From: Candidatus Cloacimonadales bacterium
Lineage (GTDB): Bacteria > Cloacimonadota > Cloacimonadia > Cloacimonadales > JAIOQZ01
DNA: 64,000 bases
Reading direction: 5' to 3'
NCBI GenBank assembly: GCA_963665815.1
Contig: OY762463.1
Location: 192,001 to 256,000 of the forward strand
This document shows positions 12,798-30,470 of the stretch, one piece after another. The notes beneath the pieces were generated by a model. The model did no database searches and was not told where the DNA came from. It was given only the letters and a program-made list of their open reading frames with translations. Every line of letters starts with the position of its first letter. Positions within the stretch are counted from its first letter, which is position 1. The position numbers and the translations under genes were made by a program.

Positions 12798-13038
12798 CTA
12801 TTTTTTTCCTCCAGAAAATCTGTTAAAATTATTAACTGTTCGCTTTAAAAGTCAATCATTTTTTTTTTGAGTATTTTGCCATTATATTATAACTCTTAAG
12901 ACAATAATAAGATAGCTGATTGAAGAGCAAACTTCGTTTTTTTGTATTAGCATTGTAATTTATGTAATGTCAGTTTTTTAGGTATTATTGAAAATTATAT
13001 TTACTTTTATCTATAGTATAATTGAGAATATTTGCCTG

Positions 13039-13506
13039 TCAAGTTCTTCGTATGAAATTTCTTTTTCTTATATTTTCCAGACGTTTTTTTATCATTTTTT
13101 CTCCGATTGTGAAATAGAGAATTGCCAGAACCGCAACAGATATAAAAAAAACAATTCTGATTATAGTGATTAAAACAAAAGGAAGAGCAAAATGTCCTAA
13201 CTCTGTATGACTTATCACATCACCCGGTTCAATATCATAATCAAACAAAGTCATATCCATATCAGGCGCATTCTCGCCAGTGATTTTTGAAAACTCATCA
13301 AATGGAATAGAAAGGATTGCTGAAGCTTCCCTCAGGGTTGTGTCTTCCGTGATTTCTGAATAATCCAGACAGGCTCCTGAGTAGCTTTTCAAGTCGCGAA
13401 AATCTGCACATATACTTAGAACAACAATTATACCATAATACAGAATCAGGATCCCTGTTACAATATACTTTGAAAACTGTTTCCAGTGTTTAATCAGTTC
13501 TTCCAT
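13039..13506 (-). CDS. Hypothetical membrane protein (2 TM), paralog of the neighbouring gene
   Basis: 155 aa: TM, acidic loop, TM, basic tail. Confidence 0.75.
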   Translation of the reverse strand: MEELIKHWKQFSKYIVTGILILYYGIIVVLSICADFRDLKSYSGACLDYSEITEDTTLREASAILSIPFDEFSKITGENAPDMDMTLFDYDIEPGDVISHTELGHFALPFVLITIIRIVFFISVAVLAILYFTIGEKMIKKRLENIRKRNFIRRT

Positions 13507-13977
13507 TTACTTTTTTCCCATGAATTTTTTCATTTTTTGGAGATTGTTAATGTTATCTATTCTTTTCTGAGAAGATTGGTGTTTAACACGCTGCTTCTCT
13601 GCTTTTCTGATTACATATATCATCATGATCAGCCACCTTAAAATGATGTAGCACAATGCACTTAAAGATATTATTGATGCTGCTATATGGAGATAGTCTC
13701 CGGAGAATCGTTCTACATTACTGTTTTTCCACAAAATATCGGTGGATATTTCAAGATCTTTCAGTGTTTTATTGAAATCTATTTCTTTATTTGGGAAAAT
13801 AAATTCAGCTTCTCTCTGTGGGATGTTCAATCTCTTAAACGCTTTTGCCAGTGTTATATCTTCTTTTATTACAACAAAAAGAACTTCACTTGAAGCAACC
13901 CAGAATATCCTTAATGCTGTGATAAACAACATGAAGAAAAATGCTTCATTCATTGGATTACGTTTTATATTACTCAT
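13507..13977 (-). CDS. Hypothetical membrane protein (2 TM)
   Basis: 156 aa, GGAG RBS, stop codon abuts the next ATG. Confidence 0.75.
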   Translation of the reverse strand: MSNIKRNPMNEAFFFMLFITALRIFWVASSEVLFVVIKEDITLAKAFKRLNIPQREAEFIFPNKEIDFNKTLKDLEISTDILWKNSNVERFSGDYLHIAASIISLSALCYIILRWLIMMIYVIRKAEKQRVKHQSSQKRIDNINNLQKMKKFMGKK

Positions 13978-14165
13978 TTATTCTCCGGTAATATTATAGC
14001 TTTTATGATCATAATCTTGTTTGGCTGGAGATAATAGTCAAGCTTATTCATTGAAATGTTACTTATAAGAGGGTTCAGTGTCATGAAAATTGATCCGATA
14101 AAACATTTGACAATAATATTGGAGTGTTACTATTACTGAACATATTTAAAAACAGGGATGATATT

Positions 14166-15047
14166 ATGATAGATAGAACTTTTAAAGAATATGTTGATGG
14201 TTTAGATAAAAAAGGTCTGATAGCTGCAATGGATAGAGTTAACAGAGACCGTTATGAAGATTGTTATCAGTATATGAAAGAAGTGCTTGAAACAAAATAC
14301 AATAAATATGGTTTATCTGATGTAGTCGTGAACAGGGATGAAGAAACGGAAAGTACTTTCATTAATGTAAAAGATGAGGAAATCGCAGATGAGTTAGCTG
14401 AAGTGAATGATGAAGATGATTCAGACGATTCAGTGATTAATGTTTCCGGAATTGATAAAGAAAACCTTAATAGTGAAATCAGTGATATCTTCAGAAAACT
14501 GCATGACAAGAGTTATTGCGAGATAAAAGTAATTCATGATCAGTATCCTTCATTAAAAATTATACAAGAAAGGGAGAAGTATTACGTTTCTTATTTCAAA
14601 TGTCCCGGACTAAGCGAACTGAGTTTAAATGAAGCATCTGTCAAGAAGATACTTAAAGCTTATCTTAAAGACAATGATAGCTGGCAATCAGTATACTTGA
14701 GGGAACTGAAAAGTGTTGCCGCTGCGGCTAAAGTAAACAGAACTTTCTATAAATACTCTAAGATATTTGCTGCTGTAGTTTCAGTAGTATTGTTTCTTTC
14801 AGCAGCAATACCTGAATTAAGTTTTGTACACAACATGTATTTTAAAGATATTGAGAGAGTCATAGGTATATTCTCACTTACTTTTTTCCTTGGTTTCCTT
14901 GATGAACTCATACTTATTTTTAATGGTAATTATAAATTTGTTGGTTTCAGAACGTCCTTATATGTATTAGCTGTCAGTGGAGCAGCAATTGGATTTGTAA
15001 TATATTTCTACTATGATTTGTTCAGACTTTTGATTAGAATAATATAA
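14166..15047 (+). CDS. Hypothetical membrane protein (3 C-terminal TM)
   Basis: Acidic soluble N-terminus and three hydrophobic segments; ATG 14166 preferred to GTG 14124 because of the upstream AGGGA. Confidence 0.75.
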   Translation: MIDRTFKEYVDGLDKKGLIAAMDRVNRDRYEDCYQYMKEVLETKYNKYGLSDVVVNRDEETESTFINVKDEEIADELAEVNDEDDSDDSVINVSGIDKENLNSEISDIFRKLHDKSYCEIKVIHDQYPSLKIIQEREKYYVSYFKCPGLSELSLNEASVKKILKAYLKDNDSWQSVYLRELKSVAAAAKVNRTFYKYSKIFAAVVSVVLFLSAAIPELSFVHNMYFKDIERVIGIFSLTFFLGFLDELILIFNGNYKFVGFRTSLYVLAVSGAAIGFVIYFYYDLFRLLIRII

Positions 15048-15066
15048 TTGAGTAACAGGAGGAATT

Positions 15067-15681
15067 ATGAAGTTGAAAAGGTGTGTATTGTTTTTCGCTA
15101 TTTTAGTTTTAATGACAGGTTGTGCCAGTAGCTTTGTCTCCGTAGAAAATCAACTTCATAAGGATTATAGCAACACATTTGAAAATAATGATTTCAAAAC
15201 AGAATATTCTTTTCATGTGATGGAATAATCTCAGAATGAGACATATGCAAAGAAGGCACTCAAGAAAGGATTTCAGGTTTTAAGTATTAAACTGACCAAC
15301 AAGACTGACAGGGTTTTAAATCTGAGAAAGGATGTTAATTTTATGCTGAACGATCAGGTAGTATATCCTCTGAAAGTGCAGCAATTAGATCTGCATATCA
15401 GGCAATGGGTGCTTCCTCATTTGTTGTGGACTGGACTTTCTGCCGGTGCAATATTTGTTAATGATGATGCAGAATTTCTGAAAATCCCAATAGCCTTGTT
15501 TGGACCTCTCGTTGCATTCACTAATGTAATGAAAAGTAAAAAAGCGAATGAACTATTTGTTAAGTATATCTCAGATAATAATTTGATAAACAGGACAATT
15601 AAGTCGGGGGAAACTCTGGAAGGAGTTCTTGTGCTGAAATCATTTACGCATGGACAACTTAATATTGAGGTTATTGAATAA
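15067..15681 (+). pseudogene. Lipoprotein gene interrupted by an in-frame TAA at 15226-15228
   Basis: AGGAGG RBS, MKLKRCVLFFAILVLMTGC lipobox; after ..FHVME* the same frame continues SQNETYAKK.. into the 15343-15681 ORF. Confidence 0.85.
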
Positions 15682-16173
15682 GTAATTACAACGGATTATT
15701 CCATTATTTTGACCACAGAATATACGGAAAGAAGAACTTCTTATAAACTCTTTAGAAAGGGGTACGCAGGTAATGTACCTGCATTCACTTCAGGCTCGTA
15801 AACTCAATATTTCTACATGTACAAGCTTCAGCAATTCTGCCAAATGCGTAGAGGGATACAGCCGTTTGTCTCATCTTTGTCTCTTAACTCTGAAACAACA
15901 TCTGTTCATTCTTCATTACTTTTACTTTTTTGATAAGAGTTTAGAGGTTTGCTTTTGAGTTGAAGTCCAATATCTCCTAAGGTTGTAATAGTTTGATGCG
16001 AGAATTCATAGGGTATGAGAACTCCACATTGGTAAAGCAAGAATATTTACAGGTCAAGACCAGATATTAATGTGACAATTACTAATATATAAAAGTGTTT
16101 TTTTGAAAAGAAATATTAAATTATTTACAATGATCCGATTATAAACAACTAAATATATAATAAGGAGTTAATT

Positions 16174-17655
16174 ATGAAGGCGTTATTAATTTATCCTGAA
16201 ATTCCTGAAACATTTTGGAGTTTCAAATATGCAATGAAAATTATCAATAAGAAAGCTTCATCTCCTCCTTTAGGGTTGTTAACATTGGCATCATTAATGC
16301 CAAACAATTGGGACTTAAAACTGATAGATCTCAATGTAAACAAGATGACTGATGAGTTATTAGAGTGGGCAGATATTGTGCTGATAAGCAGTATGATTGT
16401 TCAGAAAGAAGCAACCATAGAGCTTATAAATAAATGTTCAAATTACGATGTTTTTATTGTCGTAGGAGGACCTCTGTTTACTGAAGAATATCTTAGTTTA
16501 GACAATATCAATTGCTATGTTTTGAATGAAGCAGAGATAACATTTCCTTTATTTTTGGAAGATCTTAGAAAGGGAGAGCTAAAAAAAATTTATAGAACTA
16601 CAAACTTCTCAGATATGACAAAAAGTCCTTGTCCTATGTGGGAGCTGGTTAATTTTGATTATTATGATTCTATTGGAATTCAGTTTTCCCGTGGTTGTCC
16701 TCATGATTGTGAATTTTGCAGTGTTACTTCTTTGTTTGGGCATAAACCAAGAATAAAAACTGCAGATCAGATATTACAGGAATTAGATAAAATATATAGC
16801 CTTGGATGGAAAGGAAGTATCTTTTTTGTAGATGACAATTTTATTGGAAACATGAAATATGTTAAATCTTTTTTGTTACCAAAAATTATTAAATGGAGGG
16901 CTCATAAAAAAGGTATTTCCTTTCATACTCAACTATCAATGAATATTGCAGATGATGAGGAAGCTGTGAATTTAATGGTAGAAGCGGGGTTTACGAAAGT
17001 TTTTGTTGGAATAGAAACACCTGAAGAAAGCAGTTTGGCTGAATGCAACAAGTATTCTAATCAACATCGTAATTTAATCAAAGATATTAATTTTTGTCAA
17101 AAAAAGGGTTTAGAGATACAAGGAGGATTTATCGTAGGGTTTGATCATGACCCTGTTTCAATTTTCAAAAAACAAATTGAGTTTATTCAAGAAAGTGCTA
17201 TTATTACTGCAATGGTGGGAATACTACAGGCTCTTCCCGGAACAGCTTTGTATAATCGGTTACAAAAGGAAGGCAGACTACAGGAGGCTTCATCAGGAGA
17301 TAATGTAGATGGTTCTACAAATATAATTCCTGTAATGGGATTGAATAATCTACAGGAAGGATATAAAATGATCATGAAAAAAATCTATTCCCCCAGTTTT
17401 TTTTATCAAAGAATAAAGAGATTTCTTCGAATTTACAGAAAGCCTGAAGCAAATGTTACAATAACTTTTAAACGGATACTGATTTTTTTACGTTCAGTTT
17501 TTTATATTGGTATCCTTGGTAAAGAACGAGTTTATTACTGGGATTTGATATTCTGGACTTTGGTGCATAGGCCAAAATTGTTTACTTTAGCTATTACATA
17601 TACGGTTTATGGTCAGCATTTCAGGAAGGTATGTGAGAAGTATAGTCTGATTTAA
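16174..17655 (+). CDS. Cobalamin-binding radical SAM protein (DUF4070-type, HpnP-like)
   Basis: TFWSF..PPLGLLTLA B12-binding start, RGCPHDCEFC CxxxCxxC, FFVDDNF, GGFIVGFDHD. Confidence 0.9.
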   Translation: MKALLIYPEIPETFWSFKYAMKIINKKASSPPLGLLTLASLMPNNWDLKLIDLNVNKMTDELLEWADIVLISSMIVQKEATIELINKCSNYDVFIVVGGPLFTEEYLSLDNINCYVLNEAEITFPLFLEDLRKGELKKIYRTTNFSDMTKSPCPMWELVNFDYYDSIGIQFSRGCPHDCEFCSVTSLFGHKPRIKTADQILQELDKIYSLGWKGSIFFVDDNFIGNMKYVKSFLLPKIIKWRAHKKGISFHTQLSMNIADDEEAVNLMVEAGFTKVFVGIETPEESSLAECNKYSNQHRNLIKDINFCQKKGLEIQGGFIVGFDHDPVSIFKKQIEFIQESAIITAMVGILQALPGTALYNRLQKEGRLQEASSGDNVDGSTNIIPVMGLNNLQEGYKMIMKKIYSPSFFYQRIKRFLRIYRKPEANVTITFKRILIFLRSVFYIGILGKERVYYWDLIFWTLVHRPKLFTLAITYTVYGQHFRKVCEKYSLI

Positions 17656-18100
17656 CTTCGGATAGCTGCATATTTTCTTTTGACTTTTTGATTTATTTCC
17701 CAATTTATGCGCTTAGGCAACAATGATGCTAATCTCCTCAGAAATAAACATTTATCATTCTTAAATAATAGATATCAAAACAAATTAGACAATAAATCCG
17801 TCAATCATTGAATTTTGCAACTGGAGATCACATTCGGAATGGATGTAATCCTTCCGACTAGTGTGACATATAGGCATAAGCATTTTTTTGGGGAACCACG
17901 GAAGGAACAAAAGGCCAGGATTGCTTTTGTTGAAGACTTTGAGCATGGAATAAAACCTCCGCAATTGTGAATTTTAAACATGGGTCTATATGTTGTTACA
18001 CCTCTGATTCAACACTGATGAATCTTTCTTACTATCAGGTAGAGCTTTGTCAATGCGTGTTTGAGTTGTTCTCGCAACCGTGTAAAAATGTGTATGTATC

Positions 18101-18206
18101 AAATAGCCGTTGCATGCAATGCCTCTACATTGTTCCCAGCCGCGCAGAGACAACCGGATGGTTGTCTAATAGAATGAAGGTAGATGTATGCATTGGTCAT
18201 GTAGGT
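18101..18206. repeat. Degenerate GTAG-type REP-like palindromes; 18138-18206 is a direct-repeat copy of 19548-19617
   Basis: CCGTTGCATGCAATGCCTCTAC and AGACAACCGGATGGTTGTCT; 24/30 identity over the first 30 nt with 19548-19577. Confidence 0.7.
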
Positions 18207-18237
18207 AGAAACTGATTTTTTTATGTGAGACTTCAAC

Positions 18238-18267
18238 AAAAAAAAGGCTGTCGAATGATCAACAGCC
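18238..18267 (-). terminator. aqpZ terminator
   Basis: A-run followed by GGCTGT-N10-ACAGCC. Confidence 0.65.
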
Positions 18268-18291
18268 ATATTTTAATATTGTTCAAGAATC

Positions 18292-18987
18292 TTATTTTTC
18301 TTTTCCAATGAAATTATAGATAAATCCACCCAGTGCTCCTCCAATTATAGGGAACACCCAGAAGAACCAGAGTTGCTTCAGAGCTATACCCTGAGCAAAA
18401 ACAGCAACACCCATGCTTCTCGCAGGATTAACTGATGTGTTTGTAATAGGAATGCTGATGAGGTGAATAAGTGTTAAACCAAGACCGATAGCTATTGGTG
18501 CCAGACCTGCAGGGGCTCGTTTGTCAGTAGCACCCATAATTATAAACAGAAACATCATTGTCATAACAACTTCACAAACAAGACCGGCGAGCATTGAATA
18601 TCCGCCCGGAGAATGTTCTGCAAAGCCATTCGAAGCAAAACCACCGGCTGCACTAAAGTCAGCAACACCACTGGCTATAAGATAAAGAACTCCTCCACCT
18701 AATATACCACCGATAACCTGTGCAAGAATATAGGGGAGTACGTCTTTGCCGGGGAAGCGTTTACCAGCCCACAATCCAATTGTTACAGCAGGATTAAGAT
18801 GACATCCCGAAATATGACCAATTGCATAGGCCATTGTTAAGACAGTAAGACCAAATGCCAGGGATACCCCCAGCAGACCAATACCGACACCAGGAAAAGC
18901 AGCAGCCAGAACTGCACTACCGCATCCACCAAGAACAAGCCAGAAAGTACCAATGATTTCAGCTGTAAATCGTTTAGACATATTCAT
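18292..18987 (-). CDS. aqpZ: Aquaporin Z
   Basis: [38 protein letters not shown] (both NPA motifs); start set at ATG 18987 after a GGGAGGA RBS. Confidence 0.97.
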
Positions 18988-19254
18988 ATTTAATCCTCCC
19001 TTGGATTTTTCAAAATCTGGTAACATAAACTCATAAATGTCAAGAATATAATTTTCCGGAACTTATAATTATGTGATTTACCTGATTGAGGGATTATTTG
19101 GTGAAAGCCCTTGCGTATGGCTGAAAATCTCCGCAATGTTGGATTTAAACTACGGATACTGAGCCATAGATTTCACTGATTTAACAGATAAAATTCTCCT
19201 CCAGGGGAGGAGTACGCCGCAATGCGGTGGGAGCTGGTTTACATCATTATCTGA

Positions 19255-19308
19255 ATCGAACTTATGCAAATACTTAACCCTCTTTCTCCATTCTGTCGAT
19301 ATTCACCC
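19255..19308 (-). repeat. ~54-bp dispersed repeat, copy 1 (copy 2 at 31663-31716, opposite strand)
   Basis: Shared core TCGACAGAATGGAGA(A/C)AGAGGGTTAAGTATT. Confidence 0.8.
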
Positions 19309-19436
19309 GTAGATGTTTTCGAAGAAACACATCCAGGATTAGCGTAGATGTTTACGCAGGAACACATCCAGGATTAGCGTAGGTGTTTCCGCAGGAACAC
19401 ACCTGGAATTAACGTAGATGTCTTTACGAAAAGGAC
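19308..19436 (+). repeat. Tandem array of 35-bp GTAG-headed hairpin units (3 full + 1 partial)
   Basis: Units start at 19308, 19343, 19378, 19413; consensus CGTAGATGTTT(C/A/T)CGCAGGAACACATCCAGGATTAG. Confidence 0.9.
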
Positions 19437-19547
19437 TTATTCGGTGTACTTACAGCGAAGACAGAACCACCCCGCCCTTCGGGCACCCCTCCAAGGGATG
19501 GGAATTATAGCCTGCTGCTGTTTTCTAAATATTTGTACTTTTCTGCT

Positions 19548-19617
19548 AACCGCGTAAAGGCAACCGGACGGTTGACTCATTGGGTGTAGAGCCGATGCAT
19601 GCATCGGCTATGTTGGT
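19548..19617. repeat. REP-like doublet with a perfect 20-bp palindrome
   Basis: CAACCGGACGGTTG, then GTAG + AGCCGATGCATGCATCGGCT (19590-19609). Confidence 0.8.
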
Positions 19618-19726
19618 TCAATAATCATTGTTCCTTATATATTGAAAACTACCCGATGCAAAAATAACTGGACATAATTTACCCCTAAAGTAACAAGAAT
19701 AATATAAATATTCAAGGTTGTATTTT

Positions 19727-22700
19727 ATGAGTGATTATAAGCAAACAAAGTTATGGAAAGAATTTGAATCGAAGGCTGATGTTGACAATGTTGTTGAAGT
19801 TGAATCACATATTAAAAAAGCAATTTCTAAACTAAAATTAGTAAGAGATACATTTCCCGCATACACATTACACGACGAAGAGCATTCTTTGAATGTCCTT
19901 AAATTAATGGGTGAACTTCTAGGCGATAGTATGCAGTATGTAGATAGTTTAGAACTCGTAATGCTTATTCTGAGCGCATATTATCATGATATTGGAATGG
20001 TTTACTCTAATTCAGAAAAAGATGCAATCAAGGACAATCCTCTTTTTAACGATTTTCTGAAAAGTAATCCAAAATACAAATTGAGAATTGCTGAATTGCA
20101 AAAAAATAAAAGTTCATTACCTGAAGATATTGTCCAGGCTTTCTGTCGTTGGAATCATCCACAGAAGAGCTATGATGATATTATGATTCAGGAAGGGATG
20201 AAATATGGAAAGATAACAATCAATAAAAAATTAGCCCTCCTTTGTCAAAGTCATGGGAATAGCATATATGAGGCAAAAAATAATGAAGCATTATTGGCAA
20301 ACTTCCATGAAAATACAGATTTACTCTTTTGCGCAATTATCCTGAGATTAGCTGACATCATGGATTTTGATTACTCCAGAACTCCTGAAGAGATATATCA
20401 GTATTTATCGTTATCATCTGAAACAAGTTCAAGTGCTAAAATTAGTAATGTAGAATGGTTGAAGCATATAGATTCAGAAGGTTTTTCATTTCCAAGAAAT
20501 GGAAGAAAAAACAATTATGCAATTAGTTTTCATGCACAACCGGATAAACCAATTATTGAAAAGGGTATCAGAGAATTCTTAAAAATAATTGAAAATGAGA
20601 TAAATGATTGTATTGCTGCACTTCGATATTGTTCAGACAGATGGAAGAACTTCAAACTTCCATCTAGTTATATTAATAAAGACAATATTTGTAGTCAAGG
20701 ATACACATATGGAGAATATCGATTTACCCTCGACCATGATAATGTGCTTAAGCTACTAATAGGTGAAAACTTATATTCAGACGATTTTGTTTTCATTAGA
20801 GAATTGCTTCAAAATTCAATAGATACCTCAAGATTCAGAGAAAGTTATGAAAAAGGAAGAGGAAATTCAGATTTTAAGTGTGAACCAATAAATATAACAT
20901 CATGGAGAGATGCGACTGGCTATGTTTGGTTTAGGATTGATGATTATGGAATGGGAATGAGTAAGGAGATAATTGAGAAATATTTCCTTCAGATAGGTCG
21001 ATCATATTATAATTCTGATGATTTCAAATTGGATACTCTTACTGACAAAAACAAGCTTGTACCGATTAGCAGATTTGGTATTGGTATTCTTTCTTGTTTT
21101 ATTGTTGGCGACCAAATTGAATTGAGCACAAGATATATTAAGAACGACGTTGCTAGAAATGCAATTAGAATGACAATGGAAGGGTCTTCAGGTTTCTTTA
21201 CGATGATGCATGAATATAATAACCTCAAAGCTAGTTCGATGCCTGCAAAATATGGGGAGTCTAATGATTATCGGAAAGCTGATGAATATGGAACATCTAT
21301 TGCAGTCAGGTTAAAACAATCATTCAGTTTTGATGAATTAGATTTCACTGAAGAAATAAAGAACTATGTATCTTTTTCTCCAATACAGATTCAGCATAAT
21401 GATATGTCTATTGGTTGCGATTATGATCGTATTCTCTATCCATGGATAAAAGATTATAAAATTGATCTTCCTAATGAAATTGTTTTACAGTTAGAAGAAG
21501 TTCTCAAAATGGACTTTGAGGATGGAATTAAGATTGGTTTATACACTATTGACATTACAAGACTTTCGCAAAACCCGAGCATAAAAGGACAAGTTCTTTA
21601 TATAAAACTTGAAATTTCAGATAGAGATAAGAAAACAATAGGTATAGAGTATAAAAGAGAAGTAAAGATTATTTTTGACAATATCTCAAGAACTTTTGAA
21701 CTTGATGTAAGATTTCGAGATGATGACACATTGAAGAGAATAGTATATATAGATGATAGAATAAACTATCTCAATATATCAATAAGATATGGCCTTCAAA
21801 AACTACTAGGTTATAATAAAGCAAAAGTAGAACTAATTCACAGTATCTTGGATAATGCATTCAGATTCAAAAAAGAAGATATAACAGATTTAAAAGAAGT
21901 CATGAATGCTAATGAAGATTTGGATTATCTAATGAGTGAAATAGATGCATTATATGATCAGATTACCGAATATAAAAATCTAAAAAAACTTAAGCATAAA
22001 GCTCTTATACATAAAAAAATATCTCTAGACCATTGCTTATGTGATGTCGAGAATATTTACCCTGTATTCAGTAAGTTTCACTTAACTTATAATGGAATTA
22101 ATTTACCCCAAAGTTTATTTGATGCGTTAGAGTTGAGTAACACAGAAGATGGAATATTACTTGGAGTCTGTGCATTATTTGATGAGCTAAGACCAGAAAT
22201 GTTAATTTCAAGAGATAGAGTAAGATTTATGCCCATTGAAATCTATTTGGCATTGCACTTCCCTTTATACAAAGCTCTAATGGACATTGATAATTGCATT
22301 TATAGTCCTTTTTATGGATACTATTATTTTAGTCAGGAAGGCTATAAGAAGTATTATCAACACAACTTAGTTTCATTTAAAGATACTTGGAAAGCTGAAA
22401 AAATTTTTTATACACAAAATGGTTTCTTGTCTATCTCTGATATTGATGAACTTATATGTATTAGTAATGAAATATACTTAACAGATTCTGAAGATGTTTT
22501 TTTTGGTAGTCTACACAAAAGTATACAATCTTTTAGTCTAGTAAAAGCACTTCTACTACAAACGAATTATTCTATTTCTTATATAAATAAATCTATTGTT
22601 ATTTCAAGAGTTTTAGAAAATGAGGAAAAGGAAATTTTTACGTATTTTCCACCTGTTTTCTTTATTGCTTATCAGAAGGAATCAAGAATTCTTAAGGCTA

Positions 22701-22948
22701 ACAATATACCACTTAATATAAACCATGATTTGTCAACATGGTTAATTGGGAATGCCCCCTTCTTATTCAATAATTATTCTAAGGTTTTTAATTTTTTGAT
22801 TGAAAAGCTTATGCGAATTGATAGATTGGAAAGTATTGATATTGCTGAAATAAACTTAAAATTGGATAAATTAAATGAAATCAATTCCAGTGAATACATA
22901 AAGGCAAATTTCAAAATTTCTGAAGCAGATTTTGAATTTACTGAATAG
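19727..22948 (+). CDS. HD-domain phosphohydrolase (HD-CE-like) fused to an HSP90-like GHKL ATPase and a long unknown C-terminus
   Basis: YTLHDEEHS, YYHDIGM, LRLADIMD (HD motifs); LYSDDFVFIRELLQNSIDT, DDYGMGMS, ISRFGIGILSCF, GTSI (Bergerat fold). ATG 19727 or TTG 19718. Confidence 0.85.
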   Translation: MSDYKQTKLWKEFESKADVDNVVEVESHIKKAISKLKLVRDTFPAYTLHDEEHSLNVLKLMGELLGDSMQYVDSLELVMLILSAYYHDIGMVYSNSEKDAIKDNPLFNDFLKSNPKYKLRIAELQKNKSSLPEDIVQAFCRWNHPQKSYDDIMIQEGMKYGKITINKKLALLCQSHGNSIYEAKNNEALLANFHENTDLLFCAIILRLADIMDFDYSRTPEEIYQYLSLSSETSSSAKISNVEWLKHIDSEGFSFPRNGRKNNYAISFHAQPDKPIIEKGIREFLKIIENEINDCIAALRYCSDRWKNFKLPSSYINKDNICSQGYTYGEYRFTLDHDNVLKLLIGENLYSDDFVFIRELLQNSIDTSRFRESYEKGRGNSDFKCEPINITSWRDATGYVWFRIDDYGMGMSKEIIEKYFLQIGRSYYNSDDFKLDTLTDKNKLVPISRFGIGILSCFIVGDQIELSTRYIKNDVARNAIRMTMEGSSGFFTMMHEYNNLKASSMPAKYGESNDYRKADEYGTSIAVRLKQSFSFDELDFTEEIKNYVSFSPIQIQHNDMSIGCDYDRILYPWIKDYKIDLPNEIVLQLEEVLKMDFEDGIKIGLYTIDITRLSQNPSIKGQVLYIKLEISDRDKKTIGIEYKREVKIIFDNISRTFELDVRFRDDDTLKRIVYIDDRINYLNISIRYGLQKLLGYNKAKVELIHSILDNAFRFKKEDITDLKEVMNANEDLDYLMSEIDALYDQITEYKNLKKLKHKALIHKKISLDHCLCDVENIYPVFSKFHLTYNGINLPQSLFDALELSNTEDGILLGVCALFDELRPEMLISRDRVRFMPIEIYLALHFPLYKALMDIDNCIYSPFYGYYYFSQEGYKKYYQHNLVSFKDTWKAEKIFYTQNGFLSISDIDELICISNEIYLTDSEDVFFGSLHKSIQSFSLVKALLLQTNYSISYINKSIVISRVLENEEKEIFTYFPPVFFIAYQKESRILKANNIPLNINHDLSTWLIGNAPFLFNNYSKVFNFLIEKLMRIDRLESIDIAEINLKLDKLNEINSSEYIKANFKISEADFEFTE

Positions 22949-23020
22949 TCATTAGTAATCTTTCTATATCTCTCATCCCCATTACCCCCCCCAACCTTTT
23001 ACGTCAACTCTAAAATTAAA

Positions 23021-23103
23021 ACGTGAAAAAAATCACGAAAAACTCTTGACTCTTTTTGCGGGAATTTTTAATCGTGATTTATATAACGTTATAAATTCAC
23101 GAT
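23021..23103. promoter_or_regulatory. Rex-like operators around the rex promoter
   Basis: ACGTGA-AAAAAA-TCACGA 23021-23038; TTGACT 23046-23051; near-palindrome ATCGTGATTTATATAACGTTATAAATTCACGAT 23071-23103. Confidence 0.8.
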
Positions 23104-23117
23104 AAGGAGTACTCAAT

Positions 23118-23750
23118 ATGAAAAGAGAAATACCTGTAGCGGTCATCAGAAGGATGCCGAAGTATCACAGAGAACTGTTAATACTAGATCAGGCGGGAGA
23201 AGATTTCGTCTCAACCCCTAAACTGGCAGCAGCAACCGGCGTGCACGATTCACAGATCAGAAAAGATATCGGGCTTACCGGACTTCGGGGAATTCCTAAG
23301 AAAGGACACAAAATCAAGGATCTCATTTCAGCTATTGAGACATTCCTTAACTGGAACGATGTTTCCTCAGCATTTCTTATCGGTGTTGGAAACATTGGTA
23401 AAGCATTACTCAACTATACTAACTATGAGCAATATGGTTTGAAAATCATCGCAGCATTTGATACTAACCCGGAAGTGGTTGGGCAGAAGATCAACGATAT
23501 CCAGGTTTTTCCTGTCGAGAAGCTGGAGAATCTTGTGCAGAGACTTAAGGTTCCTGTCGGAGTAATAACCGTGCCTGCAGACGCAGCACAGGAAACTGCT
23601 GACATGCTTGTTAAGAGCGGGATCAAGGGCATCTGGAATTTTGCACCGGTCACACTTGATCTCCCGGAACACATAATTCTCGAAAATGTCAATCTATACC
23701 ATGGACTGGGAGTCCTGTCAAAACGTCTGAAAGAAAAGTTAAACCCTTAA
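23118..23750 (+). CDS. rex: Redox-sensing transcriptional repressor Rex
   Basis: IPVAVIRRMPKYHR, SQIRKDI, IGVGNIGKAL Rossmann motif, AAFD, GIWNFAP. Confidence 0.95.
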   Translation: MKREIPVAVIRRMPKYHRELLILDQAGEDFVSTPKLAAATGVHDSQIRKDIGLTGLRGIPKKGHKIKDLISAIETFLNWNDVSSAFLIGVGNIGKALLNYTNYEQYGLKIIAAFDTNPEVVGQKINDIQVFPVEKLENLVQRLKVPVGVITVPADAAQETADMLVKSGIKGIWNFAPVTLDLPEHIILENVNLYHGLGVLSKRLKEKLNP

Positions 23751-23824
23751 CACTATTACTTCATGAGAGTCTTACGCTTAAGAAGCATGTAAACGTAACA
23801 AGATCTCTTAATGATGGAGGAAGA

Positions 23825-24322
23825 ATGAACAATACAGAAAACATGAATCAGTTTGAAAAAGTTGTTGAAATCGTTGAAAAGTATAATAACGATCCGACAA
23901 AATTAATTCCTATAATGCAGGCTATTCAGGAAGAATACAGATACCTGCCACAGGAAATTCTTACATCCGTAGCCGTTATGCTTGGTGTTTCACCTGCAAA
24001 AGTATACGGGATTGCCACTTTTTACTCACATTTCTCACTTGAGCCTAAAGGCAAATACATTATTAAAATATGTGATGGAACTGCATGTCATGTAAAAGGA
24101 TCAGGAGTACTGATCGAGAAAATGAAAGAACATCTCAAACTTGGAGAAGATCAGACAACAACCCCGGATATGCTGTTTACTCTCGAAAGCGTTTCCTGCC
24201 TCGGAGCATGCGGACTTGCTCCCGTAGTAGTTATCAATGATGACGTTTACGGACAGTTAACAGCGGCTAAAGGCGTATCACTTATTGATGAAATCAGAAC
24301 AAAGGAGCAGGATAATGTATAA
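23825..24322 (+). CDS. hydC: Bifurcating [FeFe] hydrogenase NuoE-like 2Fe-2S subunit (HydC)
   Basis: ATFYSHF, CDGTACHVKG, SCLGACGLAP. Confidence 0.92.
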   Translation: MNNTENMNQFEKVVEIVEKYNNDPTKLIPIMQAIQEEYRYLPQEILTSVAVMLGVSPAKVYGIATFYSHFSLEPKGKYIIKICDGTACHVKGSGVLIEKMKEHLKLGEDQTTTPDMLFTLESVSCLGACGLAPVVVINDDVYGQLTAAKGVSLIDEIRTKEQDNV

Positions 24323-26213
24323 CAAAACACTTGAAAGCATTAAAGAAAGTTATTCATCAGCTACCGGAAACATCAAAAAAAGAATCGTTGTCTGTGCAGG
24401 AACAGGTTGTATAGCTAACGGCTCCAGAGGGGTTTACGATGAGTTAGTTAAAGTAATGAATGAACTTGGTGTTGAATCAGTTGTTGATATTGCAATGGAA
24501 GACTGTCACGATGGTAAGGTTCATCTTTCCGAAAGCGGCTGTCAGGGATTCTGTCAGGTTGGTCCTCTTGTAACTGTTCTCCCTGATGATATTCTGTATG
24601 TTCATGTAAAGAAAGAATCTGCCAGAGATATAATCGAAAAAACAATATTGAACAATGAAATAGTAGAAGAATTATTATACACTAATCCCGTTGATAAACA
24701 GCATTACAAAGGTCACCATGAAATTCCTTTCTACAAGCTTCAGACCAGAAACGTAATTGCTCAGTGCGGTGTAATAGATCCGGGCGATCTTAACGAATAC
24801 ATTGCAAAGGACGGATATAAATCAGCAAGAGACGTAATCACGAACCTGACAGAGGAAGAGACTTGTCAGTATATTCTTGATTCAGGTCTTCGCGGACGCG
24901 GCGGCGGTGGATTTCTTACAGGTAGAAAATGGATGTTCGCACAAAAGAAAGCTGCTGATAAGAAATACATAATCTGTAATGGAGATGAGGGAGACCCTGG
25001 TGCATTCATGGACAGATCACTTCTGGAAGGTAATCCTCATTCAGTTCTGGAAGGTATGATGATTGCTGCCAGAGCAATTGGTGCAGACGAAGGCTACATC
25101 TATGTAAGAGTTGAGTATCCGCTTGCTGTACAGAGAGTAAGAAGAGCGATCAGGGATGCGGAAGAAAACGGAATTCTCGGAAACAACGTATTCGGAACAG
25201 ACTTTAGTTTTAAAATAAATGTAATGGAAGGTGCAGGTGCGTTTGTCTGTGGTGAAGAAACAGCTCTTATCGCTTCAATTGAAGGTCAGAGAGGTATGCC
25301 GAAACCTAAACCGCCTTTTCCTGCTGATAAAGGATTATTTGGTAAACCGACTATCATCAACAACGTCGAAACACTTTCAACTATCCCGCTTATTTTCCTT
25401 CAGGGGAACGAAGCTTATACTAAAGTAGGAACAGAAAGCTCTCCTGGAACCAAAACTTTTGCACTCACCGGACATGTTGCTAACACAGGACTTATTGAAG
25501 TACCTTTCGGGTCAACTGTCAGAGATATTGTATTTAACATTGGTGGTGGAGTAATTGATAATGATGGTAACGTAGACAACTCCCAGTTTAAAGCAGTACA
25601 GATTGGTGGGCCGTCCGGGGGATGCCTTACCGAAGAACACCTCGATGTTCCGCTTGACTTTGATTCTCTGACCTCGATTGGTGCTATGGTTGGCTCCGGC
25701 GGACTTGTTGTCATGAACAAAAGCACCTGTATCGTGCAGATTGCCAGATTCTTCATGAACTTCACCCAGAACGAAAGCTGTGGAAAATGTGTTCCATGTA
25801 GAGAAGGAACAAGCCAGATGCTGAGACTCCTTGATGATATTATTGAAGGAAACGGATCTCTTGAAACTCTGGATCTTCTGGAAAAAACAGCAAAGACGGT
25901 TAAAAGTGCATCACTCTGCGGACTGGGTAAATCAGCTCCAAGTCCTGTACTCTCAACCCTGAAGTACTTCAGAGAAGAATATGAAAAGCATGTTGTTAAA
26001 GGATACTGCCCGACAGGTCAATGTAAAGCATTAACGGTATATTCAATTGATCCTGAGCTTTGTAAAGGCTGTACACTTTGCAAAAGAGCCTGCCCGGTAG
26101 ATGCAATAACCGGTGATGTTAGACAACCACATATTATAGACCCTGAAAAATGCATTAAATGCGGAGCATGCGTTGCTACCTGTAAATTCAATGCAATCAA
26201 TGGAGGTGCATAG
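24315..26213 (+). CDS. hydB: Bifurcating [FeFe] hydrogenase NuoF-like FMN/NADH subunit (HydB)
   Basis: SGLRGRGGGGF, CNGDEGDPGAFMDR, GAGAFVCGEETAL, ESCGKCVPCREG, C-terminal 2x[4Fe-4S]; start ATG 24315 after AAGGAG. Confidence 0.95.
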   Translation: MYNKTLESIKESYSSATGNIKKRIVVCAGTGCIANGSRGVYDELVKVMNELGVESVVDIAMEDCHDGKVHLSESGCQGFCQVGPLVTVLPDDILYVHVKKESARDIIEKTILNNEIVEELLYTNPVDKQHYKGHHEIPFYKLQTRNVIAQCGVIDPGDLNEYIAKDGYKSARDVITNLTEEETCQYILDSGLRGRGGGGFLTGRKWMFAQKKAADKKYIICNGDEGDPGAFMDRSLLEGNPHSVLEGMMIAARAIGADEGYIYVRVEYPLAVQRVRRAIRDAEENGILGNNVFGTDFSFKINVMEGAGAFVCGEETALIASIEGQRGMPKPKPPFPADKGLFGKPTIINNVETLSTIPLIFLQGNEAYTKVGTESSPGTKTFALTGHVANTGLIEVPFGSTVRDIVFNIGGGVIDNDGNVDNSQFKAVQIGGPSGGCLTEEHLDVPLDFDSLTSIGAMVGSGGLVVMNKSTCIVQIARFFMNFTQNESCGKCVPCREGTSQMLRLLDDIIEGNGSLETLDLLEKTAKTVKSASLCGLGKSAPSPVLSTLKYFREEYEKHVVKGYCPTGQCKALTVYSIDPELCKGCTLCKRACPVDAITGDVRQPHIIDPEKCIKCGACVATCKFNAINGGA

Positions 26214-28225
26214 TGAAAAAAGAAAGAAAATACATGTTTGTAAACAATAGAAAAGTTGAAATTACCGATGAAAAAAATGTTCTTCAGGTAGCAAGAAACG
26301 CCGGTGTAGAAATCCCGACATTCTGTTATCACTCAGAACTCAGTGTTTATGGTGCCTGCCGTCTCTGCCTCGTAGAAATCGAAGGAATGGGAACAGTTGC
26401 ATCATGTACAATCACTCCTCAGGAAGGAATGAGAGTTAAAACGCATACTCAGGAAATCAGAGAAACAAGAAAGACTATCATGGAACTGCTTCTGGCGAAT
26501 CACGATCAGAAATGTACTTCCTGCATTAAAAGCAGTGACTGTAAGCTGAGAGAACTTGCTGACAAAATCGGTGTCGGTGAAAACCATTACAAGCACACCA
26601 AACCTGAATATGAAATGGATACAATCTCAGATTGTCTTATCCGCGACCCTAACAAATGCGTACTCTGCGGTGACTGTGTGAGATATTGCGAAGAGATTCA
26701 GGGAATCGGTGCCATAGACTTTGCCGGCAGAGGTGAAAACGTGATCGTATCACCTGCATTCGGACAGTCAATTGCTCATGTGGACTGTATAAACTGCGGT
26801 CAATGTGCTGCTGTGTGTCCGACCGGTGCAATCGTACCTAAGGGACAGATTGATGATGTCTGGAATGTAATCAACGATGATACAAAAACTGTTGTAGCTC
26901 AGGTAGCTCCGGCTGTAAGAGTAGCTCTTGGTGAAATGTTCGGATACAAAGCCGGAGAACTCACAATAGGTGAAATGACAGGCGTTATGAAAATGATGGG
27001 ATTCAACAAGGTATATGATACATCATTTGCGGCAGACCTTACTACACTGGAAGAAGCTAACGAATTCATACAGAGAAAACAGAATGGCGGAAAGCTTCCT
27101 ATATTCACATCATGTTGTCCTGCCTGGGTGAAATATGCTGAGCAGTCACTTCCTGAGCTGCTTCCTAATCTTTCATCCTGTAAATCACCTCAGCAGATGT
27201 TTGGTTCAGTTGCCAAAGAAGAACTCCCTGAAATGCTGAAAGTAGATAAGAAAGATCTGGTTGTTGTTTCAATCATGCCATGTACAGCAAAAAAATTCGA
27301 AGCAAGAAGACCTGAATTCAGCAAAGACGGAGTTAAAGAAGTAGATTATGTCCTTACAACTAAAGAACTGGGACTCATGATAAAAGAAGCAGGCATAATG
27401 TTCAATGAAATCAATCCTGAATCAATGGACCTTCCTTACGGATTCGCAACAGGAGCAGGTGTTATTTTTGGTAACACTGGTGGTGTAACAGAGTCTGTAC
27501 TGAGATATGTTGGTTCATTAACAGACAGCGAAGTATACGCTGATTCTGATTTTGAAGATATTCGCGGATTTGAGGGAGTTAAAGAAACTCAGGTTACTGT
27601 CGGTGATCTTAAACTCAAACTTGCGGTAGTTCACGGGATCAAGAACGCTAAGAGTCTGGCAGACAAGATTCAGGCTGGTGAAGTTGAATATGATATCGTA
27701 GAAGTAATGGCTTGCCCGGGCGGATGTATCGGTGGAGCGGGACAACCTGTAACACACAACGAAAAAATACGTCAGGCACGTGCAAAAGGTATATATCATG
27801 CTGACAAGATCATGCAGCTTCATAAACCTGATGACAACCCATTTATAAAAGAATTGTACACCAGAAAACTCAAAGAACCGGGAAGCAGTGTTGCTCACGA
27901 GTTACTCCATACCAAATACAAAATGCGTAAAAGAATTCAGACTAACGACATTCAGGTAATGCAGTCTGAAAATCCTGATGCAGTAAAAGTAAGTGTATGT
28001 GTAGGAACCGGATGCTTTATCAGAGGATCAAGAAAAGTACTTACTGACCTGACAAAGCTTGTAGCGAATGATCCGCTTAAAGACAAAGTCAATATTTGTG
28101 CAACCTTCTGCAGTGAAAACTGCGATAAAGGTCCTACAGTGACTATCGGAGATGACAAAGTATATAAAGCTGATGCAGATACAGTAATGACGGTTTTGAG
28201 AGAGCGAATTAACGCGCATAGTTAG
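26213..28225 (+). CDS. hydA: [FeFe] hydrogenase catalytic subunit (group A3, HydA) with a C-terminal thioredoxin-like 2Fe-2S domain
   Basis: H-cluster motifs TSCCPAW, MPCTAKKFE, EVMACPGGCIGGAGQP; N-terminal FeS clusters; C-terminal CVGTGC..CSENC. Confidence 0.96.
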   Translation: MKKERKYMFVNNRKVEITDEKNVLQVARNAGVEIPTFCYHSELSVYGACRLCLVEIEGMGTVASCTITPQEGMRVKTHTQEIRETRKTIMELLLANHDQKCTSCIKSSDCKLRELADKIGVGENHYKHTKPEYEMDTISDCLIRDPNKCVLCGDCVRYCEEIQGIGAIDFAGRGENVIVSPAFGQSIAHVDCINCGQCAAVCPTGAIVPKGQIDDVWNVINDDTKTVVAQVAPAVRVALGEMFGYKAGELTIGEMTGVMKMMGFNKVYDTSFAADLTTLEEANEFIQRKQNGGKLPIFTSCCPAWVKYAEQSLPELLPNLSSCKSPQQMFGSVAKEELPEMLKVDKKDLVVVSIMPCTAKKFEARRPEFSKDGVKEVDYVLTTKELGLMIKEAGIMFNEINPESMDLPYGFATGAGVIFGNTGGVTESVLRYVGSLTDSEVYADSDFEDIRGFEGVKETQVTVGDLKLKLAVVHGIKNAKSLADKIQAGEVEYDIVEVMACPGGCIGGAGQPVTHNEKIRQARAKGIYHADKIMQLHKPDDNPFIKELYTRKLKEPGSSVAHELLHTKYKMRKRIQTNDIQVMQSENPDAVKVSVCVGTGCFIRGSRKVLTDLTKLVANDPLKDKVNICATFCSENCDKGPTVTIGDDKVYKADADTVMTVLRERINAHS

Positions 28226-28361
28226 ACATAAATTAAGATTTGTGATGTAGTTACGGAAGTTTGGTCGCATTGATAGTTATGTATCGAAGTTCATCTTTTA
28301 TCTCCAGTCAATGCGACTTCTTCTAATCATTAAAATCTTACAAGGACATAAGGTGGTTGAC

Positions 28362-28613
28362 ATGAAACGTGAACCTGAGATAATTATTTGTATGGGAAGT
28401 TCCTGTTTCAGCAGGGGCAATAAAGAGAATCTTGAGATTATTAAAAACTGGCTGTCCCTCCATGATGTTAATGCAGTAGTTAAGCTCCGAGGTACACTAT
28501 GTACTGATAATTGCAGTGCAGGACCCAATATGTGTGTCAACGGGCAATGGTTTCAAGTTCCTGATCGTCAGGTTTTATTGTCAAAACTTAAGAACATGCT
28601 CACGGACAGTTAG
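28362..28613 (+). CDS. hfsA: Thioredoxin-like 2Fe-2S ferredoxin (HfsA-like)
   Basis: ICMGSSCFSRG..LCTDNCSAGP; ATG 28362 after AAGGTGG. Confidence 0.85.
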   Translation: MKREPEIIICMGSSCFSRGNKENLEIIKNWLSLHDVNAVVKLRGTLCTDNCSAGPNMCVNGQWFQVPDRQVLLSKLKNMLTDS

Positions 28614-28625
28614 TAAATAGATAAG

Positions 28626-28726
28626 GAGAGCTTTGCATAACAGCAAAATCAATTAGATTTGAATAGACTTTTCAGATTTAAACCGTATCTTTTACTTATC
28701 AGCCTGTAGAATTAATGAGTCAGATT
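28626..28726 (+). mobile_element. MITE copy B (left end plus internal remnants; right end not seen)
   Basis: GAGAGCTTTGCATAACAGCAAAATCAA; internal ACTTTTCAGA and TGAGTCAGA shared with copy A. Confidence 0.65.
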
Positions 28727-28745
28727 TAAAACAAAGGATTTTAAC

Positions 28746-30470
28746 ATGAACAAGATTGATCCTATTTATACAGAAAAAACCGAATGTCAGGATTGTTATA
28801 AATGTGTAAGACATTGTCCGGTTAAGGCTATTACCGTGGAAGATGGTAGTGCTGTTGTTGATTCCGAACTGTGTATTTTCTGCGGAAAATGTGTAGAAAT
28901 CTGTCCTGTTGGAGCAAAAAGGATCAGACTTGATCTGTCACTGGCTAAGCAACTGTTGAAACAAAAAGATAGAGTATATGTTTCACTGGCACCATCTTAT
29001 GTCACCGAGTACCCTGATATTCACCCTTCACAGCTTATCCAGGCTATAAAGAGACTTGGCTTCCGGGGCGTTTCTGAAACAGCTATAGGAGCTCAGCTTG
29101 TGAGTGATGAATGTCTCAGCTATATAGAATCGGAAGGGCGGAAGTTCTACATTTCTTCCGCTTGTCCGGTTACAAACAACCTTATATCCAAGTATTTCCC
29201 TGATATTAAAGATAATGTCACAGCAATAATGTCCCCTGTACTGGCTCATTGTACCTTTTTGAAACAGCACTTAGGGGATGATATAGGCATTGTCTTCATC
29301 TCTCCCTGTATTGCAAAAAAGCAGGAAGCAGACAGTTACCCGGATGTTATGGATGTTTCTATCACATTCCGGGATCTGAATCAGTGGTTTGAAGAGGAGC
29401 AGATTAAGCCGGAATACTTAAGGGTTGATGAGGCTCAACAGCCAGTACCTTTTGCAGCGGATGACGGGGCGTACTACCCTATAGACGGTGGTATGAGCCG
29501 TTCCATGAAAGCTGCAGGTTCTATGGATGATATTGTTGTAATGACTTTTTCCGGTATCAGAGATATCAAAGATGCACTCAAGGATATTGAAAAACTCCCT
29601 GATGGTAAAACATATTTTATAGAAGTTCTTGCCTGCGAAGGTGGATGTGTGAACGGACCGTGCTCACAGACAAGAGATTCTACGATTGTCAAAAACAGTC
29701 AGATTCTTAACAGAGGCAAAGACTCGCGCTCAGAGAGTGCTTCTGTGAAAGAAAGCATAAAAATGGAAATTGAGACTGCCGGTTTGCATAAGAAGCAGTA
29801 TACGCTTTCTCAATTGCATGAAGCTCTGTTGAGCGTTGGTAAATACAGCACCAGAGATGAACTTAACTGCGGAGGCTGCGGCTATAACTCTTGTAAGGAA
29901 TTTGCGGCAGCTATGATAGACGGAAAGGCTGAGAAGACCATGTGCGTTTCCTATATGAGGAAGTTGGCTACCAAGAAAGCTAATGCCTTGATGCAGGCTA
30001 TGCCGTCCGGTGTTGTGATTGTTGATAAGGATCTGCGAATTGTTGACTGTAACAAAAAGTTTGTAGAGCTTGTTGGTGGTGATGCCGAGTTTGTTTATGA
30101 AGCTAACCCCGGGCTTGAGGGAGCATATCTCAAAAAGCTGATTGATTTCCATGAGCATTTCTCTAACATGTTTAATTCGGATAATGCTGAGCTTACAATA
30201 AACATAAAGAACAATGATAAATATCTGAATTTGACCTTATTTAACATAGAAGATCAGCGACTGGTCGGAGGTATAATTCAGGATATTACAACACCTTATA
30301 TACAGAGAGATCATGTTATACTTAAAGCAAAGGAAGTTATCCGCAAGAATTTGACTACAGTACAACAGATTGCCTTCCTTCTTGGTGAAAACGCTTCTGA
30401 GAGCGAAGTGATGCTGCAGGAGATAATTGACTCCTTCGGTAGTGCTCAGCATCCGAGAAAAGATTCCTGA
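28746..30470 (+). CDS. hfsB: Putative sensory [FeFe] hydrogenase with PAS domain (group C; HydS/HfsB)
   Basis: 2x[4Fe-4S] N-terminus; altered H-cluster motifs ISSACPV, ISPCIAKKQE, EVLACEGGCVNG; LNCGGCGYNSC; C-terminal PAS. Confidence 0.92.
   Translation: MNKIDPIYTEKTECQDCYKCVRHCPVKAITVEDGSAVVDSELCIFCGKCVEICPVGAKRIRLDLSLAKQLLKQKDRVYVSLAPSYVTEYPDIHPSQLIQAIKRLGFRGVSETAIGAQLVSDECLSYIESEGRKFYISSACPVTNNLISKYFPDIKDNVTAIMSPVLAHCTFLKQHLGDDIGIVFISPCIAKKQEADSYPDVMDVSITFRDLNQWFEEEQIKPEYLRVDEAQQPVPFAADDGAYYPIDGGMSRSMKAAGSMDDIVVMTFSGIRDIKDALKDIEKLPDGKTYFIEVLACEGGCVNGPCSQTRDSTIVKNSQILNRGKDSRSESASVKESIKMEIETAGLHKKQYTLSQLHEALLSVGKYSTRDELNCGGCGYNSCKEFAAAMIDGKAEKTMCVSYMRKLATKKANALMQAMPSGVVIVDKDLRIVDCNKKFVELVGGDAEFVYEANPGLEGAYLKKLIDFHEHFSNMFNSDNAELTINIKNNDKYLNLTLFNIEDQRLVGGIIQDITTPYIQRDHVILKAKEVIRKNLTTVQQIAFLLGENASESEVMLQEIIDSFGSAQHPRKDS

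Follow-up and report, generated by a model that had tools for sequence, protein, structure and literature searches.

Gene Organization and Overall Architecture

The window analyzed here is a stretch of 64,000 nucleotides from a Candidatus Cloacimonadales bacterium (contig OY762463.1, positions 192,001–256,000; coordinates without a locus prefix are those of the window). At 19727–22948 of its forward strand lies a gene whose product combines an HD-CE domain with an Hsp90-like ATPase. The listing of open reading frames (ORFs) and their translations gives an uninterrupted forward-strand frame from 19718 to 22948, with an ATG at 19727 and the stop codon at 22946–22948. The predicted product of 1073 amino acids (aa) was recovered as an exact self-match (P0002) in the protein collection. 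The gene is located between a cluster of repeats (19308–19421) and the start of a rex gene (23118), as an earlier note made from the letters of this DNA had described. It is also AT-richer than the neighboring rex-hyd genes, with a guanine-plus-cytosine (GC) content of 0.28–0.33 against 0.40–0.44. Scans for promoters and terminators gave no signal above the shuffled expectation.

The protein is almost certainly a two-module, stand-alone, accessory protein, consisting of an N-terminal HD-CE phosphohydrolase and a divergent, complete-looking Hsp90-type machine. An AlphaFold2 model built from 76 homologs has a mean predicted local distance difference test (pLDDT) score of 80.8 and a predicted template modeling score of 0.76, residues 640–780 being the low-confidence exception. 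The best Foldseek matches of this model are full-length Hsp90 and TRAP1, with E values of about 1e-11. Conserved columns were judged in alignments of 23 (alignment A1) and 76 family members, and in both every catalytic motif column is either invariant or conserved in at least 90% of the sequences. The HD and ATPase motifs listed in the earlier note are among these columns without exception, and the architecture that it proposed, an HD-CE domain with an Hsp90-like ATPase and intact catalytic residues, is borne out by Pfam, NCBIfam, and the alignments. The mean pairwise identity is 0.38 for the HD domain and 0.42 for the ATPase domain, 0.14–0.26 for the middle domain with its insert, and 0.21 for the C-terminal domain. 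A conserved enzymatic half (38–42% mean identity) and a fast-evolving half (14–26%) are thus present in one protein.

HD-CE Domain

The HD-CE domain (residues 43–293; 19853–20605, forward strand) matches Pfam HD-CE (PF24391) with 140.5 bits against a cut-off of 27 (E 1e-40), covering profile positions 1–262 of 263. The name HD-CE presumably stands for "conflict effector". Its metal-ligand motifs are TLHDEEH (H49, H53), YHDIGM (H87, D88), WNH (H144), SH (H176), and LADIMD (D210), and H49, H87-D88, H144, H176, and D210 are assigned as ligands. The pattern H...HD...D of the HD superfamily is present, supplemented by two further histidines. With the generic HD model (PF01966) the protein reaches 20.8 bits, under the cut-off of 22.

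A comparison of residues 1–330 with PDB sequences gave no meaningful match. In the structural search with the whole model, residues 1–328 align best with PPX/GppA, class I (cyclic-nucleotide) phosphodiesterases, and SpoT. The folds matched are helical and may reflect only the common ancestry of HD proteins and phosphodiesterases, and the substrate is not readable from them. In one further member of the protein collection (P0111) and in one protein of G001, a genome of the same genus, a calcineurin-like phosphoesterase replaces the HD domain on the same Hsp90-like module. The G001 protein has 1263 aa (L109:4651-8439, forward strand) and the same architecture as P0111. This swap points to a swappable phosphoester-cleaving effector and suggests phosphodiester cleavage.

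Two homolog loci carry further HD-CE proteins near the HD-CE/Hsp90-like gene, one of 994 aa directly upstream (L067:2-2983) and one of 501 aa three ORFs downstream (L085:10289-11794). They point to local duplication or paired use.

Hsp90-like ATPase, Middle Domain, and C-terminal Region

Residues 331–565 (20717–21421, forward strand) form an Hsp90-type GHKL ATP-binding domain, as identified by the NCBIfam HSP90/HtpG N-terminal match, a PDB profile, and hhalign. It contains the motifs RELLQN (E359, N363), DYGMG (D406, G408, G410), RFGIG (G451, G453), and GT (G522, T523). The NCBIfam HSP90/HtpG models cover residues 331–603, and the profile of the domain matches HtpG, GRP94, and TRAP1 of the PDB with an E value of 3.5e-15. 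When the family profile was compared with 24 HtpG sequences by hhalign, the probability was 98.9 and the N-domain alone was aligned. Pfam adds weak GHKL matches. Motifs I–IV and a transducer, the features of the GHKL class, are all present; the transducer superposes on those of Hsp90, MutL, topoisomerase II, and MORC, and among the GHKL ATPases the N-terminal ATP-binding domain is nearest to Hsp90. The protein is nevertheless far below the cut-offs of the HtpG family (59.5 against 371 bits for NF003555 and 69.4 against 455 bits for NF010683), and Pfam HSP90 (PF00183) gave no match at E ≤ 1.

The first half of the middle, or GHKL transducer, domain comprises residues 566–640 (21422–21646, forward strand) and the second half residues 781–863 (22067–22315, forward strand). 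Between them lies a variable insert (residues 641–780; 21647–22066, forward strand), with pLDDT values under 50 over most of residues 640–780, a length of 44–229 aa across the 76 homologs, and a mean pairwise identity of 0.14. The second half has conserved columns and superposes on the Hsp90 middle domain; G790 and, in alignment A1, R829 are invariant, and N789 is conserved in at least 90% of the sequences. According to the predicted model, the Hsp90 fold extends through the middle domain to residue 863. The suggestion of the earlier note that about 540 aa of unrecognized C-terminus act as a sensor does not hold in that form, since some 300 of these residues belong to the Hsp90 middle domain. 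R829 may be the counterpart of the catalytic arginine of Hsp90, a correspondence suggested by the fold match, hhalign giving no sequence signal there.

The remaining residues, 864–1073 (22316–22945, forward strand), form a family-specific α/β domain followed by helices, with the motif N997-x-x-H1000...W1005. The pLDDT values of this region are mostly 70–95. It may be a dimerization domain; only loose alignments with a high root-mean-square deviation reach into it, and profiles give no signal. A model of residues 560–1073 alone found no Foldseek match at E ≤ 0.001. For residues 864–1073, no confident match was obtained by structure, profile, or language model, the ESM Atlas scores of 0.80–0.81 being at noise level. 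Sequence kinship of the C-terminal half to Hsp90 was examined with residues 565–1073, 780–1073, 860–1073, and 565–640 against the HtpG middle and C-terminal columns, and was rejected at probabilities of about 1% or less. A resemblance of LSxSR and NxxHP to motifs of Hsp90 likewise had no support in the hhalign comparison.

Variable Site and Flanking Regions

A blastn comparison of the window with G001 gave matches at 18168–19074 (96%), 19308–19638 (95%), and 22999–31663 (94.6%). The 3360 bases between the last two matches (19639–22998; GC 0.30), which contain the fusion gene, are absent from the equivalent site of G001, where 3591 unrelated bases, likewise with a GC content of 0.30, stand in their place. 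This replacement carries four co-directional ORFs of 427, 464, 117, and 148 aa (L108:9000-12471, forward strand). None of the four has a Pfam or PADLOC match; they are a possible uncharacterized system and further candidates in their own right. Contigs from two runs of one sediment study depart from the window at 19579–19638 and resume at 22999, and their loose end resembles the G001 junction. In runs X4 and X5 the interior (19649–22960) has almost no read cover, which is not counted as absence.

The flanks themselves are shared. On the left is a gene for a MIP-family channel (18292–19026, reverse strand; Pfam MIP, E 9e-51) and on the right a rex-type redox repressor gene (23118–23750, forward strand; Pfam Put_DNA-bind_N and CoA_binding), followed by hydrogenase genes; the MIP and rex products are both 99% identical to their G001 counterparts. 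The left border is marked by three tandem repeat copies with a spacing of 35 bp and 80–100% identity (19308–19421), found by repeat searching. They lie in a region (19240–19640) that belongs to a dispersed repeat family, matches 26 other places in the genome, and has a contig depth about ten-fold over that of the flanks. This repeat cluster may drive recombination at the site.

In the window the gene has no integrase, transposase, or phage gene beside it, no tRNA gene is present in the window, and Rfam gave no match at E ≤ 0.1 in 12000–24000. The segment therefore appears as the cargo of a small variable hotspot and not as a recognizable mobile element, and a hotspot is what two sister genomes with different AT-rich cargo between equal flanks indicate. 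The gene is, very probably, accessory cargo of this variable site. The horizontal acquisition assumed in the earlier note is upheld by three observations: the low GC content, the exchange of the segment for other cargo in the sister species, and the absence of an orthologue from 40 relatives, save one distant form described below.

Distribution of the Family

At E ≤ 0.001 an exhaustive search returned 6111 representatives; the number falls to 3361 at E ≤ 1e-10 and to 922 at E ≤ 1e-30. Apart from the self-match, the top homologs have 35–46% identity and belong to several phyla; those named are from Cohnella, Chlorobium, Mucilaginibacter, Chitinophagaceae, Nibribacter, Fluviicola, and Dysgonomonas. 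Closer to the host, the family is scarce. Of 232 genomes in the phylum, six have a match to the HD-CE profile, and none of the seven other genomes of the family has one. The 40 relatives searched yielded no orthologue of the 1073-aa protein, save a distant form of 824 aa in G036. The remaining matches in these 40 relatives are HtpG and the calcineurin-like fusion of G001. Canonical HtpG is encoded elsewhere in the same genome, and it was present in all 31 relatives searched for it.

Most copies are chromosomal. Partial matches spanning the HD and ATPase regions were found on three plasmid records, two viral contigs (L096, L097), and one phage record (H16), and the phage records contain almost nothing besides matches to the Hsp90-like ATPase. 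Three viral contigs were matched in total, against at least 553 confirmed matches among 586 candidate stretches in metagenomes. Some homologs are broken: one lies in pieces beside a bSEFIR gene (L027:9986-12763), and the copy on an A. butzleri plasmid is divided into two coding sequences near a Shedu nuclease (L147:8899-11720). A full-text literature search found no experimental paper on the HD-CE family, the terms "HD-CE" and "iHD-CE" returning unrelated uses of the letters.

Genomic Neighborhoods of Homologs

The neighborhoods of homologs were collected from 59 loci (56 of the 80 in metagenomes, two on viral contigs, and one on a genome contig), of which 49 have distinct central proteins. 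Up to three ORFs per side were scanned, PADLOC matches were counted at E ≤ 1e-18, and two ORFs that are homolog fragments were dropped. No gene family recurs beside the gene across the 49 distinct loci; the gene therefore stands alone, as the earlier note had assumed.

PADLOC matches were found in 21 of the 242 neighbor ORFs, distributed over 16 of the 49 loci. As a control, 106 ORFs were taken from twelve evenly spaced 12-kb regions of the genome studied here, and three matched (mad2, a DpdE/ZorD-like SNF2 helicase, and an RtcR-like activator). The raw comparison gives an odds ratio of 3.3 (p 0.06), and 18 of 242 against 1 of 106 (p 0.01) after post-hoc removal of look-alikes on both sides. 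Probable look-alikes among the neighbors are an ABC ATPase that matched mad3 (L055), a methyltransferase that matched mad2 (L058), and a deaminase that partly matched dCTPase (L070). Since the control is a single genome of another taxon, the enrichment is suggestive only. Collectively, the defense association of the family is suggestive and modest in this sample of 49 loci, about three-fold over a rough control.

Gabija, Shedu, Menshen, Mokosh, and bSEFIR are among the defense families matched. Clear defense-type neighbors are PbeA/PbeC (L017), a PDC-S20 KAP NTPase (L019), Shedu (L025), bSEFIR (L027), MkoA (L034), PDC-S05 RhuM by three serine recombinases (L036), PDC-S03 (L049), PDC-M31A/B by double-GTPases (L051), NsnB/C (L059), GajA/GajB/Vsr (L074), a type I restriction enzyme (L085), PD-T4-1 with McrBC (L088), and PDC-S06 (L092). 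Integrases or recombinases are close to homologs in L017, L026, L030, L036, and L039. The A. butzleri plasmid copy is near a restriction S subunit and IS21 in addition to the Shedu nuclease, and a B. mycoides plasmid copy has genes for a DUF3800 protein and IS3 transposases in its vicinity. One homolog (L034:13924-16320) has genes for a MIP channel and for glycerol kinase as neighbors, which recalls the MIP gene next to the gene in the window and is probably a coincidence.

Comparison with Known Systems

The protein belongs with the form of about 1000 aa of the HD-CE and HSP90-like ATPase family, having a full-length HD-CE match and the same order of HD, ATPase, middle, and C-terminal regions. 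It has motifs in common over the whole length with P0004, P0007, P0008, and P0117. No other sequence exceeds 46% identity, and the variable insert has its own version here. From the Hsp90 chaperones (HtpG, TRAP1, and GRP94), it differs by the N-terminal HD domain, the 140-aa insert, and the unrecognizable C-terminal 210 aa. MORC and paraMORC, MutL, and the type II topoisomerases are also GHKL ATPases, and their likeness is seen in the transducer, which superposes in MORC, MutL, and topoisomerase II.

Tiamat is an antiphage protein described in a preprint as an Hsp90-like ATPase with DUF3684 and a PD-(D/E)xK nuclease, whose relatives swap effectors (10.64898/2026.09.30.754977). The likeness consists in one polypeptide with an Hsp90-like GHL ATPase and a phosphoester-cleaving effector, and in effector swapping among relatives; the preprint text does not mention HD domains or phosphohydrolases (10.64898/2026.09.30.754977). 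The present protein differs in that its effector is an HD domain at the N-terminus. Neither DUF3684 nor a PD-(D/E)xK domain was found in it by Pfam at E ≤ 1, and it is not assigned to Tiamat. Nor did it match any model of the PADLOC library, which presumably includes Tiamat.

STAND/NLR-like tripartite proteins such as Avs and bNACHT resemble the present protein in combining a conserved effector, an NTPase switch, and a fast-evolving remainder. The NTPase here is of the GHKL and not the P-loop type, and Pfam found no repeat-type sensor (TPR, LRR, or WD40) in the 1073-aa protein. A 2026 preprint from a group that surveys such systems states that HSP90-like NTPases can take the place of the STAND NTPase in "tripartite" effector-switch-sensor immune proteins, and lists HD phosphoesterases among the effectors (10.64898/2026.10.19.760177). 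The architecture is already catalogued and, according to that preprint, already predicted to be immune. Two eLife papers of 2020 and 2021 that might have described Hsp90-type systems contain no mention of Hsp90.

Proposed Role and Alternative Explanations

Considered together, a role in conflict or defense is somewhat better than an even chance. The specific proposal, slightly more likely than not, is that of a conflict system made of one protein, whose HD effector would be under the control of an Hsp90-like ATP clamp. The protein would act as an effector-switch-sensor unit, probably against phages or mobile elements. Its variable middle insert and C-terminal half would bind the trigger as Hsp90 binds clients. 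In Hsp90, clamp closure unites the N-terminal ends of two protomers. By analogy, ATP binding would close the Hsp90-like clamp so that the N-terminal ends of the protomers meet, and the joined HD domains would be switched on to cleave a phosphoester substrate. This substrate would more likely be a phosphodiester, either nucleic acid or a signaling nucleotide, than a deoxynucleoside triphosphate (dNTP). As an outcome, the invader or the infected cell would be stopped. Control of the HD domain by the clamp, which is drawn from the analogy with Hsp90, is advanced tentatively, its chances falling a little short of even.

A bolder version is clearly less likely, although not remote. It regards the protein as an immune receptor derived from a chaperone, in which the middle and C-terminal half would recognize phage proteins as "clients", and ATP-driven clamp closure would dimerize and fire the N-terminal HD phosphodiesterase. 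Abundant, partly folded phage structural proteins would be the candidate clients.

Several observations weigh against the proposed conflict system. The enrichment of defense genes near homologs was borderline (p 0.06) before the post-hoc clean-up and relied on one control genome of another taxon. No defense-type neighbor was present within three ORFs in 33 of the 49 loci, and several homologs are located among housekeeping, metabolic, or polysaccharide genes. In the window itself, the neighboring ORFs scanned are not defense-like, and 21 further window ORFs gave no PADLOC match. The 1073-aa protein matches no model of PADLOC-DB v2.0.0, even at E ≤ 1. As for the structure, the last 210 aa match no known fold in the structure, profile, and ESM Atlas searches, and sequence profiles recognize Hsp90 in the N-domain only. 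The candidate defense system of the earlier note therefore stands in part: 16 of 49 loci with a PADLOC-type neighbor, compared with 3 of 106 control ORFs, speak for it, whereas the other 33 loci, the lack of a PADLOC match, and the surroundings in the window do not.

The strongest of the other explanations, although improbable, is that of a specialized physiological enzyme, an Hsp90 paralog that would couple the folding or stress state of the cell to hydrolysis of (p)ppGpp, polyphosphate, or a cyclic nucleotide. The pattern of occurrence is unfavorable: just 6 of the 232 phylum genomes have HD-CE, the search gave no orthologue from the genus or family, and other cargo occupies the same site in the sister species. 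The low GC content also argues against it, as do the fast evolution and variable length of half of the protein and the normal HtpG already present in the cell.

Defense by nucleotide starvation, with the HD domain acting as a (d)NTP triphosphohydrolase once the ATPase is triggered, is less probable still. HD dGTPases are anti-phage enzymes, the metal ligands of the HD superfamily are present here, and the context of the homologs favors this explanation as much as the clamp-controlled effector. Yet the protein matches no PADLOC family at E ≤ 1, in a library that presumably includes dGTPase and dCTP-deaminase models. The HD region has no relative among PDB sequences, and SAMHD1- and Dgt-type chains are not among its 50 best structural matches, an absence from those 50 that does not exclude them. 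The exchange of the HD domain for a calcineurin-like phosphoesterase in relatives also argues against it. The depletion of a nucleotide upon infection, put forward in the earlier note, thus loses its footing: nothing supports dNTP depletion in particular, and the structural neighbors of the HD domain include PPX/GppA, class I phosphodiesterases, and SpoT rather than dNTPases.

Service to a mobile element, either as an addiction or competition toxin or as a counter-defense enzyme that destroys immune signaling nucleotides, has an outside chance slightly below that of starvation. The integrases, serine recombinases, and IS genes adjoining several homologs are consistent with it, as are the partial HD and ATPase matches on three plasmid records, L096, L097, and phage record H16, and a phosphodiesterase-like fold would fit signal degradation. 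Against this, the gene is not flanked by an integrase, transposase, or phage gene in the window, the three viral contigs compare with at least 553 confirmed metagenome matches, and most copies are chromosomal. Finally, a decaying remnant without function, which the low GC content, the variable site, and the broken homologs (the L027 pieces and the split A. butzleri plasmid copy) might suggest, is hardly credible given an uninterrupted frame of 1073 codons, the retention of all catalytic columns, and a confident model.

Other Features of the Window and of G001

A second low-GC stretch (12500–18200; GC 0.31–0.34) precedes the left flank. It is not syntenic in G001, where pieces of it lie elsewhere. 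It contains a gene for a B12-binding radical SAM/DUF4070 protein (16174–17655) and ORFs without an assigned function at 14124–15047, 15343–15681, 15773–15958, and 17967–18215; the small ORFs that precede the radical SAM gene may encode peptide precursors. Farther to the left, a MORN-repeat protein of 910 aa is encoded on the reverse strand (10065–12797).

To the right, the hydrogenase genes are followed at 28746–31662 by a [FeFe]-hydrogenase-like protein with a PAS domain and a SpoIIE-type phosphatase, which looks like a sensory hydrogenase module. At 34182–41938, a bacterial alpha-2-macroglobulin of 1814 aa precedes a PBP1C-type penicillin-binding protein, an ordinary known pair. In G001, on the far side of the MIP gene (L108:14225-17435, reverse strand), an AlkZ-like DNA glycosylase adjoins a Toprim/topoisomerase protein that matches PADLOC DpdF (3e-116). 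An AlkZ-like gene is also found near the homolog in L092.

Significance

The family is large, extends across many phyla, has no catalog entry other than a Pfam domain name, and is missing from the PADLOC library that was searched. What the present analysis adds to the catalogued architecture is that the ATPase module is of the Hsp90 type through the middle domain, that the claim made for the substrate of the HD domain was unfounded, that the equivalent site of a sister species holds other cargo, and that the family has a modest, suggestive association with defense genes in the loci sampled. If it protects against phages, it would be a one-gene system with a true Hsp90-type ATPase switch and a simple model of how an Hsp90-like clamp controls an enzyme. 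If the recognition of phage proteins as clients were also true, chaperone-style client recognition would be a mode of pattern recognition in bacterial immunity, represented by at least 922 clusters and equipped with swappable effectors, HD and calcineurin-like.

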